From Escherichia coli (GTDB taxonomy: Bacteria > Pseudomonadota > Gammaproteobacteria > Enterobacterales > Enterobacteriaceae): DNA of 64,000 bases. Below are positions 16,217 through 59,076 of the stretch, piece after piece. How positions within the stretch are numbered: the first letter of the stretch is position 1; each line of letters begins with the position of its first letter. The stretch lies in NCBI RefSeq assembly GCF_022846255.1, contig NZ_AP025682.1. One strand, 5' to 3'. Under the pieces are notes generated by a model, which searched no databases, was not told the DNA's origin, and saw nothing but the letters and a program-made list of their open reading frames with translations. Made by a program: the position numbers and the translations under genes.

Positions 16217-16693
16217 TTAAAGCAGACCGTGTTCCGCAAAGGAGAAAACCTGGTTGCCACCGACTATCAGATGGTCCGGCACCCGGATATCCACCAGGGC
16301 CAGTGCCTGTACCAGACGTTCGGTGATAAGCCGGTCTGCCTTACTGGGTGTGACTTCACCGGACGGGTGATTGTGTGCCAGCACCACGGCAGCGGCATTG
16401 TGATACAGGGCGCGTTTAATCACTTCCCGGGGATGGACTTCCGTGCGGTTGATGGTGCCGGTGAAGAGGGTTTCACCGGCAATCAGCTGATTCTGGTTGT
16501 TCAGATACAGCACCCGGAATTCTTCACGCTCCAGTCCCGCCATGTTCAGAATCAGCCATTCCCGTGCCGCATGCGTGGAGGTGAAGGCCACGCCGGGTTC
16601 ATGAAGATGGCGGTCCAGGGTTTTCAGGGCCCGCTGAATGAGGCTGCGCTCACCGGGCGTCATTTCTCCGGGCAGAAAGGAAATCTGTTGCAT
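16217..16693 (-). CDS. RadC-like JAB-domain protein (YeeS/YfjY/YkfG family)
   Basis: 158-aa ORF with the JAB metalloprotease motif HNHPSG and the position expected for yeeS. Confidence 0.75.
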   Translation of the reverse strand: MQQISFLPGEMTPGERSLIQRALKTLDRHLHEPGVAFTSTHAAREWLILNMAGLEREEFRVLYLNNQNQLIAGETLFTGTINRTEVHPREVIKRALYHNAAAVVLAHNHPSGEVTPSKADRLITERLVQALALVDIRVPDHLIVGGNQVFSFAEHGLL

Positions 16694-16707
16694 TGTTCCG
16701 GCCCCTT

Positions 16708-17217
16708 TCAGTCAATGATGCGCATAATGGCGCTGCATTCCGGATGTTGCAGGGCGTAATCCCGCAGCCGGTAATAGTGGACCGTCATGGCATAACACTC
16801 CGTACGACAGGCATGATGGCTGTACGCCATCAGACAGGCGGCAATGCCGGCAGCTTCCGGGCTCATTTCAGCGCGGTTACCGTTCATGGCATTGAACAGT
16901 ATCCAGGTTTCTCCATCATCTTCATCCGGTTCAGGTGCTATAAATGCGCCACCGTTGTTCAGGGTGTACAGATTCCAGATACCCCCGCAGTAGTCTTCAC
17001 ACAGACGGTCCATCCAGCCGAAGACACGGGGCTCCAGGGTCACCCACTGTGGAATGAGGCCAAAGTGCTGCGGCCAGAAGCTGATGCGCTGTTCATCAGG
17101 GACGGGAGTGGCAACCAGCTGAGGTGGGTTATTCCCTGATGCAGTAGTTACGGAAACAGAAGATGTGGTGGAATTATGCGCAGAGGTTGTCATGAGATTA
17201 TTCCTTATAAAAAGCAA
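16708..17217 (-). CDS. Antirestriction protein (KlcA/ArdB-like, YfjX/YafX family)
   Basis: 169-aa ORF; position and acidic C-terminal region typical of the antirestriction genes of E. coli cryptic prophages. Confidence 0.6.
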   Translation of the reverse strand: MLFIRNNLMTTSAHNSTTSSVSVTTASGNNPPQLVATPVPDEQRISFWPQHFGLIPQWVTLEPRVFGWMDRLCEDYCGGIWNLYTLNNGGAFIAPEPDEDDGETWILFNAMNGNRAEMSPEAAGIAACLMAYSHHACRTECYAMTVHYYRLRDYALQHPECSAIMRIID

Positions 17218-21649: not shown

Positions 21650-22522
21650 TCAGAAGAAAATCCAGTTCCATACCGCGCGGGCAACAGAGACCACGGTGTC
21701 ACGGACGGCACGCAGAACCGTACGAGCCACAGAGGCAACACAGACGCTCTCCGCCGTGTCAAATATCCGGTCCACCGCACCGGTAAACTGTTCACGGGCC
21801 TGCCCCCGGACAGATTCCGTGCACAGCTCGTCCTGCAGGCGGGTCATCAGGGGACTGGCGGCATGGTCGGGAAGTGCTGTCATGAGCGCACTGACCAGCG
21901 TATCCAGTTCCCAGCCGGTGCGGGCCGATACGGCCACAACCGGATGTACGGGCCGGAACAGCCGGAATACCGCATCTGTTTTCTCACGAATGTTCTGTTC
22001 CTGTGCGGGAGAAGGCTGAATACCTGCCATATCCCATTCATGGCAGGGCTCCGTTTTGTCGGCCTGCGTCACCACAAACAGCACCTGCTGATGTCCCCGG
22101 TGCAGGATGTGTCGCCAGAAATAGTCATCCACAGACAGGGCCCGGTCATCGGCTTTAATCAGCCACAGTACCAGGTCAAGTTCAGGCAGAATGTCACGGT
22201 ACAGGGCTTCATACTCTGCATCCCTGTCCCGGCTCTCGCCCACCCCGGGCAGGTCAGTGATAACCATGCTGTGACCATGGCCACTCAGACGGAAGCGCTG
22301 CACTTCCCGGGTGCCGGCGTGAACATCACTGACCGGGGTGACCTCCCCCTGAAACAGTGCATTACAGAGTGAGGATTTACCGGCCCCGCTTTTTCCCATA
22401 ATGCCAATCACGGGTTCGTGGCTGGTGAGTTTGCGCAGATGTTCCAGGATGTGACGGGAAAGTGAGTAAGGCAGGGAGGAGAGCGGTTTTTCAATTGCCT
22501 CAATGGCATCAGACGGATTCAT
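21650..22522 (-). CDS. YeeP/YkfA/YfjP-family GTPase (cryptic-prophage GTP-binding protein)
   Basis: P-loop GKSGAGKSS and G3 motif DLPG; located upstream of flu as yeeP is in CP4-44. Start placed at MNPSDAIEA. Confidence 0.65.
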   Translation of the reverse strand: MNPSDAIEAIEKPLSSLPYSLSRHILEHLRKLTSHEPVIGIMGKSGAGKSSLCNALFQGEVTPVSDVHAGTREVQRFRLSGHGHSMVITDLPGVGESRDRDAEYEALYRDILPELDLVLWLIKADDRALSVDDYFWRHILHRGHQQVLFVVTQADKTEPCHEWDMAGIQPSPAQEQNIREKTDAVFRLFRPVHPVVAVSARTGWELDTLVSALMTALPDHAASPLMTRLQDELCTESVRGQAREQFTGAVDRIFDTAESVCVASVARTVLRAVRDTVVSVARAVWNWIFF

Positions 22523-22751
22523 ACATGTATTCCCGGTGAAAAAAGACAAAACCCCGCGCACCGGAAAGGTGGCGGGGGGATTCACGGAGATAATATCTGC
22601 CTGAAATTATTTGGAATGCAGGTATATGTGGCTGATTTGTATCAGCTAATGAGTACAGGTCTGAATCTAATCTGACAGTCCGCTCTGTGCCAGGAGCGGA
22701 CATTGTTTTCCAACTATTACCTAAGCCTGCGAACCATCTCATCTTCACCCC

Positions 22752-28797: not shown

Positions 28798-29400
28798 TCA
28801 GTTACGGTTACCGTCAACCGTTGTGCGGTATGCCAGGAGCACGTACTGATCCATCAGATCCGTCAGTGCTGCGTTCTGCTTCTGACGGTCGATGATCCAT
28901 TCCCCCAGCTCTTTTTCTGATTTCCGTTTCAGGTTCTCCGTCCAGTCGTCAAGGCTGTTTCCGGTCATTAAATCAAGCCAGCAAAGCCAGACCAGTTTGA
29001 GGCGCAACTCCGTGCCACCAAACTGACGGAAGAGGCTGATCAGTTTATTTGCCAGAGAACGCTGCCTCAGACGTTCACATTCAGACAGCAGAATCCCTTC
29101 CAGCATCGGATGATGAACCAGCAGATGTTCGCTGGTGCATAAGTTCACCACCAGATCATCATCCAGGGGCGGCGTGGCCCGTTTGTCAGAGCCATAAATC
29201 AGCCGGTGCAGACTCCGGGGTACGATGGCAATCTTCGGTTTTTCACCATTGAATGACACCCACCCGGGCGTCAGATTATGGAAGTAGTGGATATTCGGAT
29301 GACACACGCCCCAGGATACGGCGTGCCGGGTGAAGCCGGTCAGCCATTTCTGGTAGCTTTCGTGGAGCAGCTCGTAACGGGTCTGATACTGTGGTTTCAT
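28798..29400 (-). CDS. Hypothetical protein immediately downstream of alpA (P4-like/satellite-type cargo)
   Basis: About 200-aa ORF; start placed at MKPQYQ because GAGGAA lies 7 nt upstream; co-oriented with alpA. Confidence 0.4.
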   Translation of the reverse strand: MKPQYQTRYELLHESYQKWLTGFTRHAVSWGVCHPNIHYFHNLTPGWVSFNGEKPKIAIVPRSLHRLIYGSDKRATPPLDDDLVVNLCTSEHLLVHHPMLEGILLSECERLRQRSLANKLISLFRQFGGTELRLKLVWLCWLDLMTGNSLDDWTENLKRKSEKELGEWIIDRQKQNAALTDLMDQYVLLAYRTTVDGNRN

Positions 29401-29493
29401 TTTCATATTCCTCACGGGGGATAACAGGCAGCAGAGTGCCGCCGGCAGGCCGGAGATTGCGTCTGCTGTGGGCGAAGGGCCAGTGGTTAAAAA

Positions 29494-29700
29494 TTACGGA
29501 CGGGACTGTGCAATACGCGCCTGCAGCCAGGCTTCCACTTCACTTTTCAGCCAGCGGGAGCTGCGGCCGAGTTTGATGGGAGCCGGAAAGGCCCCATCCT
29601 TGATGAGCTTGTAAAACCACTTATCGGTCAGGCCGGTCAGCTGAGTGATAAACGTCATATCGACCATCTGGTCATCCATCAGCGAAACTGGGGTGGTCAT
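29494..29700 (-). CDS. alpA: AlpA-family phage transcriptional regulator (prophage regulatory protein)
   Basis: 68-aa ORF with the AlpA signature ...ITQLTGLTDKWFYKLIKDGAFPAPIKLGRSSRWLKSEVEAWL... Confidence 0.7.
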   Translation of the reverse strand: MTTPVSLMDDQMVDMTFITQLTGLTDKWFYKLIKDGAFPAPIKLGRSSRWLKSEVEAWLQARIAQSRP

Positions 29701-30083
29701 AAAAATCTTCTCCGGATGTTGTTAATCTCAGCCGGCGTTGATGATGAAAACAACGCACCACCTTCACCGGCATAACAACCGGGGAGAAACGTAAAAAATC
29801 AGTAGGGGAATATTCCTGCCAGGAGAGAAACTGTTGTGTACAGGCAATACAGGTTGTCTGTTTTGTCAGTGAAGCCGGTATAAACGGAAGATGATTTTGT
29901 GTTGCCGGAATATGGGATGGCGTTTTGCCGTGACAGGATCAGTATTTTCAGTGATGATTATTACTGTGCAGGGGAGTACCGGAGAGAAACCACGCCCTGT
30001 ACCTGCCAGAGCGGTGGTTTGTATTGACTGAACGGAAGATAAAGCGAGGTAAACACTGTTGTGGTGAGCGGAGAAGACTGAGA

Positions 30084-30875
30084 TTATTCTCTGTAATTAC
30101 AAACAACAGTGATCTTATCCGGTTTTTTTACCGTTACGGGTTTCAGGGGATCAATTTTATAGACCGGGGTAATGACCACGCCGGAATTTATGGAGAAAAG
30201 CGGGATCCAGCAATAAACGTCAGGATATTTCTGTGTCTCCGGAATACCTTTTGTGCCAGAGGCCATCAGATCTTTAACGCTCACGAAAAATGACTTCCTA
30301 AGATCAAAAAAGTACTCGTTATATATCACATCCTTTGCCAGCAGGATGACTGCATTACCAACAGCCGATTTTACAGGTGTTTCATCAGGTGGATTATCGT
30401 GATTGTATATTGTTCTTTCTATATAAATAAAGCAGGCATATTTCGTCTTCTCCCCGGACAGTTGCATCTGGTATTCGCAAATGTCTTTGATACGCCGGCT
30501 TTCAACCCGTCCAATCATCTTATCCCGGCGATAGTGTCTTTTATGTTTCAGCGCGTACAGAACACCATTTGAACTGTCAAACTCCAGGATTTTTTTGGTG
30601 AAAAGTTTGTTTTCCCAGATTTCCAGACAATACTTCTCTGCGCTGACGACATTGCGTTTGTGGGGAAGATCCCGTTGATACACTCCATTTAATAAGCGTG
30701 ACTGCAGTTCGCCTGCAAGTTGATAGTAACAGTTAATGTCATTAAGGACAGGTGCTGTGGCGTTGAGTAATGTGTTGATTACCTTAGAGCGCGAAAGTTT
30801 GTGGATATGACAGTACTCATCCACAATTCGCAGCGTCTCATCACTGGTCATATTGAAAGTTATACGTGTTGTCAT
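30084..30875 (-). CDS. Hypothetical protein, possible N-terminal ribbon-helix-helix DNA-binding domain plus about 220-aa domain of unknown function
   Basis: 263-aa AT-rich ORF; N-terminus RITFNMTSDETLRIVDEYCHIHKLSRSKVINTLLNA is RHH-like by pattern; no strong RBS seen. Confidence 0.4.
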   Translation of the reverse strand: MTTRITFNMTSDETLRIVDEYCHIHKLSRSKVINTLLNATAPVLNDINCYYQLAGELQSRLLNGVYQRDLPHKRNVVSAEKYCLEIWENKLFTKKILEFDSSNGVLYALKHKRHYRRDKMIGRVESRRIKDICEYQMQLSGEKTKYACFIYIERTIYNHDNPPDETPVKSAVGNAVILLAKDVIYNEYFFDLRKSFFVSVKDLMASGTKGIPETQKYPDVYCWIPLFSINSGVVITPVYKIDPLKPVTVKKPDKITVVCNYRE

Positions 30876-31207
30876 GATGAAGTTTTCTGTTAATCATACT
30901 GGTTGATATGCATAACATTTCATAAAAAATGCTTTTAATTCATATAATTGATTTTTTGACTGGTTTTATCCTCGTGTGGTGGAAAGCAGTATTACTGCCA
31001 CTGTAGTCAGCATAACGCTATCACACAGAACCACCGAAAATGAAGCATTGCTCAGGGGGAAGCTGCCACTCGTATGAGTTCTCTGAACCATGATAACCAG
31101 TATTTTTCGTTTTGGGTGATTTGTTTATCGTTACAGCCATAAGCAGTTCATGTACCATTAAAAAATAATTAAGGTTAATTAGTATTATTTATAGAAGTAT
31201 GTTTATG

Positions 31208-31345
31208 TAACTCTACCTTGTAACTCTACCGTGTAAATGAACCCTGTAATTCTACCTTGTAAATGAACTCTGTCATTGTACCCTGTAATTCTACCTCTAC
31301 CTCTACCTCTACCTCTACCTCTACCTCTACCTCGTAAATACACCT
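31208..31345. repeat. Iteron-like repeat block: seven imperfect 12-13 bp direct repeats (TGTAA[C/T]TCTACC type) followed by (CTACCT)x7
   Basis: Direct reading; the hexamer array spans 31291-31332; about 0.9 kb upstream of a Rep-like gene. Confidence 0.8.
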
Positions 31346-32227
31346 TGTAACCAAGTCCTGTAGAAGTCTGTCTCATAGAAATATGTTCCTGTGCAGTGAT
31401 ACTCTCTGTAGTAGTACTTGTAACTCTGTCCTTAACTCTCTCTTCAGTAATGTAGTCCCGCAACACCTGAATATAAATCTGTAATGTACACACACTGACT
31501 GTAACGTGCTTTGTTAAGTAATACCTGTTATTTCTTCTGTTATTTTTCCTGTTGTTTTCTGTATTTTGTTGTATGGAGTAATAACTCTTCTGAACCCGTC
31601 ATCACCTTTATAGCTAAGAGTATGACTTCGCCAGTGTTGATACTGTGGATAACGGTGATTAAGGAATTACTGTTAATGATCTGTTCCTGCAGCTCACCTG
31701 ATGAGTTTTGGTAGTAATACGTAAAAGAGTATGCCTTATGCCATTAAACAGCCTTACGGAATGTTGTTTAACCCTGTACCTCTGTTACTCATGTAGTACG
31801 TTGCGGAAAGCTACGTTAATTGTAATATCTGGTTATGGCGTTATGCCTTCAGTATTAAAAACATCTTTTACCGGAGAAACAGGGAAGTGGGGAAAGGCTT
31901 TCGGGATAACGTCAGGCCATTCTGACGGTATTACGTTAATCACAGTACAGGATAACGGGAGGGTAATGGAATTTTAAACCAGAGTAGTTCCACTGTTGTT
32001 CACTGGAAAAAGTGATTTCCCACGCGCGTTATAAACGCCTTTCCGCTTCAGTCTGGTTACCAGAGCTTCAGGCGTTATATGCGCTGTAACTGGCTGTTAC
32101 GTATGCTGTTCTCTGTCTGCTTCTGATACCCCTGGACGTCGTTACCGGAGGTCACCCTGCCTGATAACGTTTTCTTCAAAAATTACGCCAGCGCTTCTTC
32201 CTGTGTTACAGAACACGAGGAAGAAAC

Positions 32228-32827
32228 ATGAAGACTTACAACACCAATCCCGGTTACGAAATGGATCCCCAGCTCCTGACACACTTTAACCAGCATCTGG
32301 ATTCATTATTCGGGGTATATTCGAAACTGTTACCGTTCAGAATGGATTTTGCTTACCGAAAAAACACCCTCAGCTACAGGTGTGCCTGCAGGTACGCCAT
32401 GTGCGCGGAGATACTGCGACTGATTAACGAAGTGGGAGAGAAACTGGTCGGGTATGCCTGGGTAATGGAATATACGGAACGTAAAGGGCTTCACATTCAT
32501 TTTGTGGGCTATCTGAACGGTCAGAGCCACAGGAGTTCGTATCTGGTATCCAGATTGATGGGAGATATCTGGAGGCGGGTTACCGAGGGTGATGGTTACT
32601 ACCACTGGTGCCGGTTTAATAAAAATTATCCGGTAAACATTAACCACGTCATTCACTATTCAGATCACAAAGCGGTGAATGCCTTACGCTATGCCCTCAG
32701 CTACCTGGCCAAACGAGAACAGAAAGAATGTGGCATCATCCTGAAATGCAGCGGGCTTCCTGAAAAAAGTAACCGGGGTCGACCGCGACTGGGCAGCACC
32801 CTGCCGGAGACTTATTCTCTGGTGTAA
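32228..32827 (+). CDS. Putative HUH-type replication initiator-like protein (YagK/YfjJ, inovirus Gp2-like family)
   Basis: 199-aa ORF with a GAGGAAG RBS; HUH-like motif LHIHFVGY and downstream Tyr-containing motif YALSYLAKRE; family assignment from memory. Confidence 0.45.
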   Translation: MKTYNTNPGYEMDPQLLTHFNQHLDSLFGVYSKLLPFRMDFAYRKNTLSYRCACRYAMCAEILRLINEVGEKLVGYAWVMEYTERKGLHIHFVGYLNGQSHRSSYLVSRLMGDIWRRVTEGDGYYHWCRFNKNYPVNINHVIHYSDHKAVNALRYALSYLAKREQKECGIILKCSGLPEKSNRGRPRLGSTLPETYSLV

Positions 32828-33192: not shown

Positions 33193-33582
33193 ATGACGAT
33201 GTACGCAAAATCCTTTATTGCATTTGATGGCAACGGGCGTCTGACGGGTGCCCGTACCGCACAGACTGCACCTTACGATCGCTACACTTACCACCTTTGC
33301 GGCAGTGCGCTCAGATACCACCCGCAATACGACACTGAGCGTCCCTGGTTTGAACACACTGACGACGGGCTGACGGAGCACGGTCAGCAGTGCCCTTATG
33401 TCAGACCGGAACGCAGGGAGATACAACTGATTAAGCGTCTGCAGCAATTCGTACCGGATGCCTTACCCGTGGTGCGTAAAGCCAGCCGGCACTGCAGACA
33501 ATGTCATCACGATTATTATGGGGAGCGGTACTGCACGCACTGCCATACCGGGCACTTCAGTGAGGAGGGGGTGGCAGAATGA
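33193..33582 (+). CDS. Cys-rich hypothetical protein (zinc-ribbon-like), paralog 1
   Basis: 129-aa ORF with a TGAGGAA RBS; motifs C-x2-C ... WFEH ... C-x2-C-x8-C-x2-C-H-TG. Confidence 0.45.
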   Translation: MTMYAKSFIAFDGNGRLTGARTAQTAPYDRYTYHLCGSALRYHPQYDTERPWFEHTDDGLTEHGQQCPYVRPERREIQLIKRLQQFVPDALPVVRKASRHCRQCHHDYYGERYCTHCHTGHFSEEGVAE

Positions 33583-34004
33583 ACGGTATAAAAACGGGGC
33601 TGGGGATCACGCCGGGTGAACACATAATCAGTGCTGATTCTGCACTCAGCAGAAATATCCGGCAGTGTTTCTGCCTTTCCTGTCATGGCCGGTTGATTTT
33701 GCAGACAGATGCTCAGGGGGCATGGTTTGAGCATGATTTATATGCCCTGAGCGAGCAACAGAAGGCAGCCTGCGTGGTGCTGAATCCGGAGAAGTCCCAC
33801 CCTTACATTGAGGATATGGCGATGTTTTTATCGCCATTACCGGTCGTGCTGGAGTGGCATTGTATGATGTGCGAGGGGCTTTTTCATGGGAAGAAGTTCT
33901 GTGAGGCCTGTGGTACGGGGATTTATTGCAGAGCAACATGTACGAAGTATGTTTACAGGTACCAGCCAGATTTGTACCAGGACTGCGGAGGTGCACTCAC
34001 TTAA
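33579..34004 (+). CDS. Cys-rich hypothetical protein (zinc-ribbon-like), paralog 2, translationally coupled to paralog 1
   Basis: 141-aa ORF; ATGA start/stop overlap at 33579-33582 with a GAGGAGGGGG SD; same C-x2-C ... WFEH ... C-x2-C ... C-x2-C-G-TG pattern as paralog 1. Confidence 0.45.
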   Translation: MNGIKTGLGITPGEHIISADSALSRNIRQCFCLSCHGRLILQTDAQGAWFEHDLYALSEQQKAACVVLNPEKSHPYIEDMAMFLSPLPVVLEWHCMMCEGLFHGKKFCEACGTGIYCRATCTKYVYRYQPDLYQDCGGALT

Positions 34005-57758: not shown

Positions 57759-58949
57759 TTATATAGCTGGTGACTCTTTTCGAAGAGCATCAAGGTAGTC
57801 AGCGTACCATTGCATCATTTCTCGTCTTCCTTCAAGGTAACGAGCATGGTTGTATGTACCACGAATGCTGTTTTTGTCCGTATGTGCAAGTTGCATTTCA
57901 ATCCATGCACTATTGAATCCTTGCTCGTGTAGAACAGTACTCATTGTATGACGAAATCCATGCCCGGTAGCTTTTTTGTCATAGCCAATCTTCTTCAAAA
58001 CCATATTGACGCTTGCATCGCTGATAGGCCTGTTAACATCATTTCTTCCGGCAAAGATGTATCTGTATCTTCCAGTCAGTTCTTTGAGGATTTGCAGAGA
58101 CTGGATTGCCTGATCTGACAGAGGGACGATATGCTCCTTCCTCATTTTCATCCGGGTCGGAGGAACTTCCCATATCTTTTGGGTAAAATCGATCTCACAC
58201 CATTCCCCCATACGTAATTCTACTGTTCTCAGCCCTGTGAGCATCAACAATTTTGTAGCTTCACGGGTTACAATACTGCCGGTGTAGTTTTCGAGTTTGT
58301 ATAAAAACTCTGGTAGTTCAGGAGGAAGCAGGAAAGGGTAATGTGTTCGCTTATAGCTTTTCATTGCTATAACCAGATCAGAAGCTGGATTGTATCGTGC
58401 CCGACCTGTAACAATGGCATACCGAAACACTTCACCACATCGTTGGCGAACTTTATTAGCTAGCTCGCAGGCTCCTCGGCTTTCGATACGCTGAAGAACT
58501 GCGAGAAGTTCAAGAGGTTCGATTTCACTAATGGGTCTGTTTCCAATGTAGGGAAACACATTATTTTTGAATGCTCTGTCGACATAATCAGCGTAGCTGG
58601 CAGACCAGCCTGAAACTTTTGCGTTGTACCACTCGGTGGCGATTGCGGCAAAAGTTCTTCCTTCGGAAAGGTTTTTCTCAAGATTTTCAGCTTTCTTGAC
58701 TTCACCGGGATCTTTACCATCGGCATGTATTTTCTTGGCTTCATCCCGACGTTTGCGAGCTTCAGCCAATGTAATAGTTGGATAGGTGCCAAATGATAGT
58801 TTCTTTTCCTTCCCCGCATAGTGGTACTTCATTCGCCAGTACTTTGAGCCGTTAGGATTGACCTGAAGGTAGAGCCCACCACCATCGGCAATCTTATAAA
58901 TTTTATCTTTGGGTTTGGCTGTTTCAACTTGTCGAGCTGTCAGTGGCAT
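57759..58949 (-). CDS. P4-type tyrosine integrase
   Basis: Start placed at MPLTARQVETAKPKDKIYKIADGGGLYLQV (typical P4-Int N-terminus); C-terminal catalytic motifs HGFRHT...Y. Confidence 0.8.
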   Translation of the reverse strand: MPLTARQVETAKPKDKIYKIADGGGLYLQVNPNGSKYWRMKYHYAGKEKKLSFGTYPTITLAEARKRRDEAKKIHADGKDPGEVKKAENLEKNLSEGRTFAAIATEWYNAKVSGWSASYADYVDRAFKNNVFPYIGNRPISEIEPLELLAVLQRIESRGACELANKVRQRCGEVFRYAIVTGRARYNPASDLVIAMKSYKRTHYPFLLPPELPEFLYKLENYTGSIVTREATKLLMLTGLRTVELRMGEWCEIDFTQKIWEVPPTRMKMRKEHIVPLSDQAIQSLQILKELTGRYRYIFAGRNDVNRPISDASVNMVLKKIGYDKKATGHGFRHTMSTVLHEQGFNSAWIEMQLAHTDKNSIRGTYNHARYLEGRREMMQWYADYLDALRKESPAI

Positions 58950-59076
58950 CTGGGGGCCTCGCAATAGATTGACCAAGATGTGCCCCTAAATAGGCCCCCA
59001 AATGTGACTTGATTTACGTTCCCCTGAGGAGAATTAAGGCGACTATTTGAGTAACATAAGTAAGGGTATGTGCTGA

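Follow-up and report, generated by a model that had tools for sequence, protein, structure and literature searches.

The subject of this analysis is a block of three co-oriented genes on the minus strand of an Escherichia coli contig (NZ_AP025682.1, assembly GCF_022846255.1), studied within a stretch of 64,000 nucleotides (nt) that is referred to below as the window. In the direction of transcription, the block consists of a gene encoding a YagM-family protein of 263 amino acids (aa), an alpA-type gene of 68 codons and a gene encoding a 200-aa protein of an unnamed family, here designated F200. We read the block, with a probability of roughly 0.55, as a conserved regulatory or maintenance module in the backbone of P4-integrase-type islands of the Enterobacterales, comparable to the 'cryptic prophage' islands CP4-6 and CP4-57 of E. 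coli K-12, and not as cargo of such an island. The three genes are as follows.

30084–30875, minus strand: YagM-family protein, 263 aa, with a modelled N-terminal ribbon-helix-helix (RHH) domain, followed by a long helix and by a C-terminal α/β domain specific to the family
29494–29700, minus strand: AlpA-family winged helix-turn-helix (HTH) protein, 68 aa, a predicted excisionase-like transcription regulator (Pfam Phage_AlpA, HTH_17 and PHROG matches)
28798–29400, minus strand: F200, 200 aa, unnamed family (gene order compared in 28 species loci; other possible starts at 29406 and 29415)

All three open reading frames (ORFs) reported at 28798–30875 in a preliminary description of this DNA were found in the ORF list, consecutive and on the minus strand. 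As alpA is the middle gene and the order is yagM-alpA-F200, the block is not headed by AlpA, contrary to what that description stated. The predicted genes are genuine and not chance ORFs, because YagM and F200 have full-length homologues with 45–65% identity in other genera. For F200, the ORF extends from 28798 to 29415 and corresponds to 205 aa when started from a GTG, and the RefSeq annotation gives 202 aa; the ATG at 29400, resulting in 200 aa, was favoured by the family alignment and consensus and by the spacing to the Shine-Dalgarno sequence. The yagM gene and alpA are separated by 383 nt, alpA and the F200 gene by approximately 93 nt. A GC content differing sharply from the flanks had also been reported. 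This is correct for the yagM gene (41.8%) and the 1.35-kb spacer upstream of it (39.6%), compared with 45.6% for the whole window, and incorrect for alpA (55.6%) and the F200 gene (52.8%), neither of which is AT-rich.

The position of F200 in other genomes was determined by scanning one genome per species, resulting in 28 F200 loci in which ORFs were labelled using seed proteins and family profiles. In 27 of these loci, F200 was preceded by a co-oriented AlpA gene, which was directly adjacent in 25; a zinc-ribbon gene intervened in two, and one locus was cut by a contig end. The loci represent at least 14 genera, across which the pairing of F200 with alpA is conserved. A gene for a YagK/YfjJ-type protein, annotated as 'inovirus-type Gp2' and referred to here as Gp2-like, followed F200 directly or preceded alpA directly, and on the opposite strand a gene for a protein of 258–380 aa (here 'X304') headed a backbone operon running from a GTPase gene to a DUF932 gene. 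The alpA-F200 core was alike in contigs of Klebsiella, Yersinia, Salmonella and Citrobacter, but the genes beyond it differed: Klebsiella carried a BREX system, Yersinia DndBCDE and Dpt-like genes, Salmonella a K88-type fimbrial operon and Citrobacter a set of three genes, one of them encoding a protein that weakly matches HATPase_c. Since the core is constant and its neighbours change, F200 is assigned to the backbone and the variable slot is placed beyond the core. In E. coli HCP17S3_I4, brxL of a BREX system was found after the zinc-ribbon genes on the Gp2-like side, outside the alpA block. The earlier suggestion of an AlpA-controlled slot for cargo or defence genes is thus not upheld, as F200 is tied to alpA, YagM occupies fixed backbone positions and cargo varies beyond them.

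No match to F200 was obtained in Pfam, NCBIfam, PHROGs, PADLOC or the Protein Data Bank (PDB). Profile searches yielded 263 clusters, and the best 120 of these 263 were from Enterobacterales or unnamed organisms, with at least 49% identity. Together with the 28 species loci, the searches placed the family in Escherichia, Salmonella, Klebsiella, Citrobacter, Enterobacter, Yersinia, Serratia, Hafnia, Pantoea, Cronobacter, Photorhabdus, Providencia, Pectobacterium and Brenneria. Nearly all full-length matches measured 191–208 aa, and identity in the species loci was at least 48%. None of the homologues listed carried a precomputed Pfam domain in the F200 part; two fusions of F200 to a transposase carried transposase domains. 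Distant paralogues (33–36% identity) retained only the motifs L-x-G-[IV]-L-L-S-E-C and L-C-W-x-[DE]-L. A His-His pair that is invariant in close members was lost in these paralogues, which argues against an obvious metal-dependent active site.

Second, divergent F200 paralogues (approximately 33–36% identity) were observed in the same islands, at 12962–13624 of locus L031 and at 16683–17111 of locus L042 (L numbers denote loci of our collection). In an E. coli sequence (CP061233.1, 753412–753972), an F200 paralogue lies approximately 0.7 kb downstream of yagM, so that the form of the block is variable. The full DUF932-GTPase-alpA-F200-Gp2-like module, with approximately 62–63% identity in F200, was also present in L033 and L040, two metagenome bins with the labels Clostridiales and Bacillota; these are most likely mis-binned contigs and not cases of cross-phylum transfer. 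Among 50,697 phage records, F200 had a single match, to a 3.6-kb 'Salmonella phage' contig flagged UNVERIFIED_ORG. This match was discounted, given that the contig is short, unverified and of low coverage.

The 263-aa protein aligned with K-12 YagM over residues 5–257 in BLASTP (25% identity, E = 5e-15). All 26 homologues examined (26/26) carried the precomputed domain PF27701 ('UCP007319'), and a near-identical orthologue is named 'YagM family protein' in RefSeq. On these sequence relationships the protein is assigned to the YagM family (PF27701/UCP007319), which is small, comprising 43 clusters at 50% identity among 1.84 billion proteins. The protein itself had no match in the Pfam-A library used, in PHROGs or in PADLOC. 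That no domain could be assigned in the block, as previously stated, is therefore superseded for the 263-aa family, to which YagM/PF27701 now applies with no function attached, and holds for its C-terminal domain and for F200.

An RHH-like N-terminus had also been proposed and is borne out by structure prediction. An AlphaFold model was built from a 26-sequence alignment reaching down to 19% identity, resulting in a predicted local distance difference test (pLDDT) score of 82.5 and a predicted template-modelling (pTM) score of 0.63; using nine close sequences only, the pLDDT score was 37.6. The N-terminus of the model adopts a strand-helix-helix fold superimposable on known RHH domains, which supports a predicted RHH domain at this position. 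The C-terminal α/β domain of approximately 200 residues matched no characterised fold. At the sequence level, the only RHH profile recovered was NCBIfam aCcr1, weakly (E = 0.005, 16.7 bits against a cut-off of 60), with a similar result for a Providencia homologue; some family members are labelled 'CopG family' in UniProt. Searches of PDB sequences with the YagM and F200 family profiles returned nothing, tblastn of YagM against the same phage records gave no match, and in the literature on yagM the gene was only listed, with no functional study found.

The position of yagM differs between groups. In distant relatives it directly follows alpA, in the order int-X-alpA-yagM-Gp2-like gene. In closer relatives (Citrobacter, Hafnia, Pectobacterium) it is the first gene divergent from the Gp2-like-alpA-F200 set and replaces X304 upstream of the GTPase operon. 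Because YagM genes occupy these other fixed positions elsewhere, the co-oriented order yagM-alpA-F200 is an E. coli-specific rearrangement of a conserved core; within the species it is stable across hundreds of genomes. A YagM-like RHH protein with 30% identity is also encoded by one of three annotated genes on a 4136-bp circular Providencia plasmid (NZ_CP114799.1). There it lies directly upstream of a small serine recombinase gene, as yagM precedes the resolvase-like yagL in K-12. The third gene of this plasmid encodes a protein of 381 aa without Pfam or NCBIfam match, which may be a new replication protein.

The AlpA identity of the middle gene, claimed previously, was confirmed by a match to Pfam PF05930 Phage_AlpA (E = 3.7e-9, residues 11–59 of 68). 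HTH_17 also matched, as did PHROGs 66 and 2790 ('excisionase and transcriptional regulator', E = 9.6e-10). As it is merely 25% identical to K-12 AlpA, the protein is classified by sequence as a member of the AlpA family and not as the orthologue of K-12 AlpA. PADLOC scans of AlpA resulted in weak HTH-type matches only. A weak similarity of AlpA to the MADS1 HTH protein (17.7 bits, with the cut-off at 80; E = 0.003) was also noted. Two features of the DNA between yagM and alpA are relevant to the expression of the block.

29701–29797, minus strand: conserved alpA leader or promoter region with the pattern TTTTTTAC ... CCGGnTnGTATGCCGGAG ... TCCGGCTTACCTT ... ACCGGAG ... ATG (alignment of 28–29 loci)
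29987–30020, minus strand: terminator-like hairpin, candidate end of the yagM transcript (consensus scan and RNA folding)

Approximately 100 nt 5′ of alpA are conserved in 28–29 loci from at least 14 genera, whichever gene stands upstream, which implies that alpA-F200 is an independent unit. The region contains two CCGG...CCGGAG motifs, the second of which overlaps the Shine-Dalgarno sequence. The conservation spans loci L004, L010, L013 and L025–L051. A structured RNA element is not proposed, RNAalifold giving a weak 4-bp stem with minimal covariation and Rfam giving no match. Since this stem is only weak, the region is treated as a conserved putative promoter, operator or leader. The hairpin, located 64–97 nt past the yagM stop codon, is predicted to fold at −18.6 kcal/mol (z = −1.56) with a stem of 13 bp, and a U-rich tract comes after it, suggesting that yagM and alpA-F200 form separate transcription units.

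Upstream of yagM, a repeat array was identified.

31206–31351, strand not assigned: tandem-repeat array, 330–480 nt upstream of the yagM ATG (Tandem Repeats Finder and a repeat finder)

The array consists of 13-nt units of the GGTAGAATTACAG or GGTTCATTTACAC type plus a perfect (GGTAGA)x7, and several predicted sigma-70-like hexamer pairs facing yagM lie inside it. It is a hypervariable locus: ten E. coli strains carried from 2 to approximately 7 copies of the 13-nt units at this site, and in another lineage 2 versus 18 perfect copies of AGAATTAC were found. The site was also seen in L023 (3336–3480), L060, L022, L024 and L057–L061. The array may serve as a contingency locus that changes by strand slippage, or it may be a set of sites to which a protein binds. 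A comparable array upstream of yagM was not found in the Citrobacter, K-12 or metagenomic loci.

From these observations we infer the following roles. AlpA would be an excisionase-like winged-HTH regulator of the island, expressed from its own conserved leader; its action as an activator is presumed from what is known of the family. F200 would most likely act with AlpA in island excision, episomal replication or regulation, beside the Gp2-like YagK/YfjJ protein, which is rolling-circle Rep-like. YagM would most likely be a dimeric RHH DNA-binding protein, serving as a sequence-specific repressor or organiser at island regulatory DNA, with its own promoter region and possibly the upstream repeat array as candidate sites. 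With the gene order of E. coli, it would in addition affect transcription that reads through into alpA-F200. Alongside the integrase and the Gp2-like Rep-type protein, all three proteins would thus take part in excising the island, in maintaining it as an episome or in controlling expression.

The block was compared with two elements of E. coli K-12. CP4-6 (intF-yagN-ykgV-yagM-yagL-yagK, all in one direction) has, like the window, a YagM protein (the founding member), an AlpA-like gene (ykgV) beside yagM and a Gp2-like gene (yagK), although ykgV and the AlpA of the window show weak similarity only (E = 0.018). In CP4-6, yagM comes after the AlpA-like gene and is followed by the resolvase-like yagL, and the integrase gene is adjacent; in the window, by contrast, yagM precedes alpA, F200 is present, yagL is missing and the integrase gene is distant. 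CP4-57 (intA-yfjH-alpA-yfjI-yfjJ) resembles the window in having an AlpA-family gene, one uncharacterised gene and then the Gp2-like yfjJ. Its AlpA is the paradigm of the family and activates intA and excision. The slot after alpA, however, is occupied in CP4-57 by the DUF3987 protein YfjI, which is unrelated to F200, and YfjH is unrelated to YagM. Tests for homology between F200 and YfjI (hhalign probability 0.1%), YagM and YfjH, F200 and YagM, and YagM and X304 were all negative.

In P4-like satellites and phage-inducible chromosomal islands (PICIs), AlpA is a marker or the master regulator (PMC10085698; bioRxiv 10.1101/2021.03.30.437493). With these, the window has in common an AlpA-family regulator, an integrative element and a P4-type integrase, and such elements can hold defence hotspots. 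The window differs in its backbone, which is of the GTPase/DUF932/antirestriction/RadC/CbtA type. The psu, delta, sid, epsilon, alpha-primase, pri-rep and capsid-redirection genes were absent from the 42-kb RefSeq annotation of a strain colinear with the window and from PHROG scans of its unknown proteins. Compared with the RHH proteins CopG, omega, ParG/ParR, TraM/MobC and ParD/TacA, no ATPase, relaxase or toxin adjoins YagM, and YagM differs from them by its C-terminal domain and by RHH profile matches below the cut-offs. A type II toxin-antitoxin pair was rejected, as the gene after yagM is alpA, YagM measures 263 aa and no toxin family was detected in F200; elsewhere, the gene after yagM is a Gp2-like gene, yagL or a GTPase gene.

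Several points weigh against a backbone module that controls the island. No integrase gene lies beside the block within the window, and the AlpA gene has no adjacent cognate tyrosine integrase there, although relatives do have int near alpA; excision control could therefore not run locally in the classical way. In some strains, among them SLK172, F200 contains an internal stop codon. No characterised homologue provides a function for the C-terminal domain of YagM or for F200, and the array, being specific to E. coli, may not be a YagM operator. Part of this evidence would fit an inert relic, in which the block is left over from a decayed island and its conservation reflects recent common descent within E. 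coli and not selection. The F200 gene is followed by AAA ATPase and hypothetical pseudogene fragments, an hha-like gene is largely deleted, no transfer RNA (tRNA) gene lies in the window and the E. coli copies of the block are at least 98% identical. All three ORFs are nevertheless intact here and in hundreds of genomes, and both families retain their lengths at 45–65% identity across genera, which indicates purifying selection on YagM and F200; we consider a relic improbable.

An unlikely reading, though one with more in its favour, keeps the module functional and shifts it from regulation to DNA maintenance. YagM would then resemble ParG, ParR, omega, CopG or TraM as an RHH protein that recognises iterons or a centromere. 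Bound to the repeats, it would help to control replication of the excised island, to partition it or to resolve its multimers, together with the Gp2-like Rep protein and, in certain elements, with a serine recombinase, while F200 would be an accessory of replication or mobilisation. This would account for the YagM-like gene beside a serine recombinase on the 4.1-kb plasmid and beside the resolvase-like YagL in K-12, for the constant linkage of the module to a Gp2/Rep-like gene and for the direct repeats arrayed in the AT-rich DNA that separates yagM from the Gp2-like gene. When the block was examined as a partition cassette, a repeat array was present upstream, but no ParA/ParM-type ATPase gene or recognisable relaxase gene was found nearby. 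The array is limited to E. coli, its unit length shifts between 6, 8 and 13 nt, unlike functional iterons, and replication of the island is only presumed. Least probable is the idea of the preliminary description that AlpA controls the 263-aa protein, the 200-aa protein or both as accessory or anti-phage cargo. BREX and Dnd do occur near the module in islands of this family, both proteins are uncharacterised, and AlpA weakly resembles the MADS1 HTH protein, albeit below the cut-off. Against this, neither protein matched a defence system in PADLOC-DB v2 or a PHROG, no P4 or PICI hallmark genes are annotated nearby, both genes are invariant backbone beside varying cargo, verified phage records lack both proteins and a YagM-like gene resides on a minimal plasmid. 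Clear homology to characterised structural or replication proteins, which that description had regarded as speaking against its idea, was found for neither protein. A literature search on AlpA with this backbone gene set yielded nothing specific, and an E. coli defence-island survey did not include AlpA or CP4 elements.

The mobile-element setting given in the preliminary description is supported, the block lying in E. coli island DNA with backbone genes. A 2.7-kb region around it is 99.9% identical to the chromosomes of E. coli 82.0311 and 82.0312, and at a coverage of at least 80% the block is present in 607 of 5426 complete E. coli genomes. In the strain colinear with the window, it is part of a mosaic genomic island adjoining the kps capsule genes. 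To one side lie genes for a YeeP-like GTPase, Ag43, DUF932, antirestriction, RadC/JAB, DUF987, CbeA/CbtA and DUF4942 proteins; to the other lie 'inovirus-type Gp2' (YagK/YfjJ) genes and paired zinc-ribbon genes. Directly downstream of F200, the RefSeq annotation of this strain lists the pseudogene fragments, namely an AAA ATPase fragment and a frameshifted hypothetical gene. Remnants of the Citrobacter cargo genes were sought downstream of F200 and none were found. Neighbouring features in the window are the following.

21650–22585, minus strand: YeeP-like GTPase, first gene of the DUF932/antirestriction/RadC/CbeA-CbtA backbone operon (phmmer E = 6e-116 to the Salmonella orthologue)
32228–32827, plus strand: YagK/YfjJ ('inovirus Gp2-type') protein, divergent from yagM (RefSeq; PF23343/PF11726 on homologues; adjoins alpA-F200 in the species loci)
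33193–34004, plus strand: two overlapping zinc-ribbon genes, 129 and 141 aa, after the Gp2-like gene (ORFs; RefSeq 'putative zinc ribbon protein')

The zinc-ribbon pair (DUF7828/Zn_ribbon_11) also follows alpA-F200 and the Gp2-like gene in Salmonella (L013, 11541–12337), and it precedes variable cargo in E. coli and Salmonella islands. In other E. coli, an Hha/YmoA-family gene lies between yagM and the Gp2-like gene, with an intact 70-aa hha in L023 (4084–4296) and a further case in L002 (9414–9563). At approximately 32003–32161 of the window this hha-like gene is apparently largely deleted, approximately 30 nt of its start still aligning.

Colinearity of the window with 82.0311 is confined to 8485–34283, and for the 44–64 kb part the coverage of the query by any complete E. 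coli genome did not exceed 39%. A single integrase was detected in the window; it is of the P4 type (57759–58976, minus strand, E = 1.6e-83 to IntA) and lies 28 kb from the block. ARAGORN found no tRNA or transfer-messenger RNA gene in the whole window, and Rfam gave no match up to E = 0.1 in the 26–36 kb part. The island in this genome is rearranged and decayed, with yagM moved upstream of alpA, pseudogene fragments and the integrase 28 kb away.

For the window itself, the analysis chiefly clarifies what the block is: it belongs to the ordinary backbone of an island and is no new defence system, and all sequences are already public as hypothetical or YagM-family proteins. A bolder interpretation is offered with little confidence. 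The core of alpA, F200 and the Gp2-like gene might define an undescribed class of Enterobacterales islands, being neither prophage, satellite nor conjugative element, with a fixed slot for cargo such as BREX, Dnd or fimbriae, and F200 might be a new excision, replication or regulatory factor acting with AlpA. The E. coli array, with 2–18 copies and three unit types, might be a slipped-strand phase-variable switch that sets expression of yagM and hence of alpA-F200.

Members of this island family abound in E. coli, Klebsiella, Salmonella and Yersinia, and bring with them BREX and Dnd systems, fimbriae and capsule-adjacent virulence genes. To our knowledge, the genes controlling their excision and maintenance are poorly defined. 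The comparison separates backbone from cargo, the variable slot lying past the Gp2-like and zinc-ribbon genes, outside the alpA block. Two points deserve attention, namely F200 as an uncharacterised family linked to alpA and the repeat array as a hypervariable locus, and YagM and the alpA-linked F200 represent two uncharacterised backbone families that are candidates for the control of island mobility.

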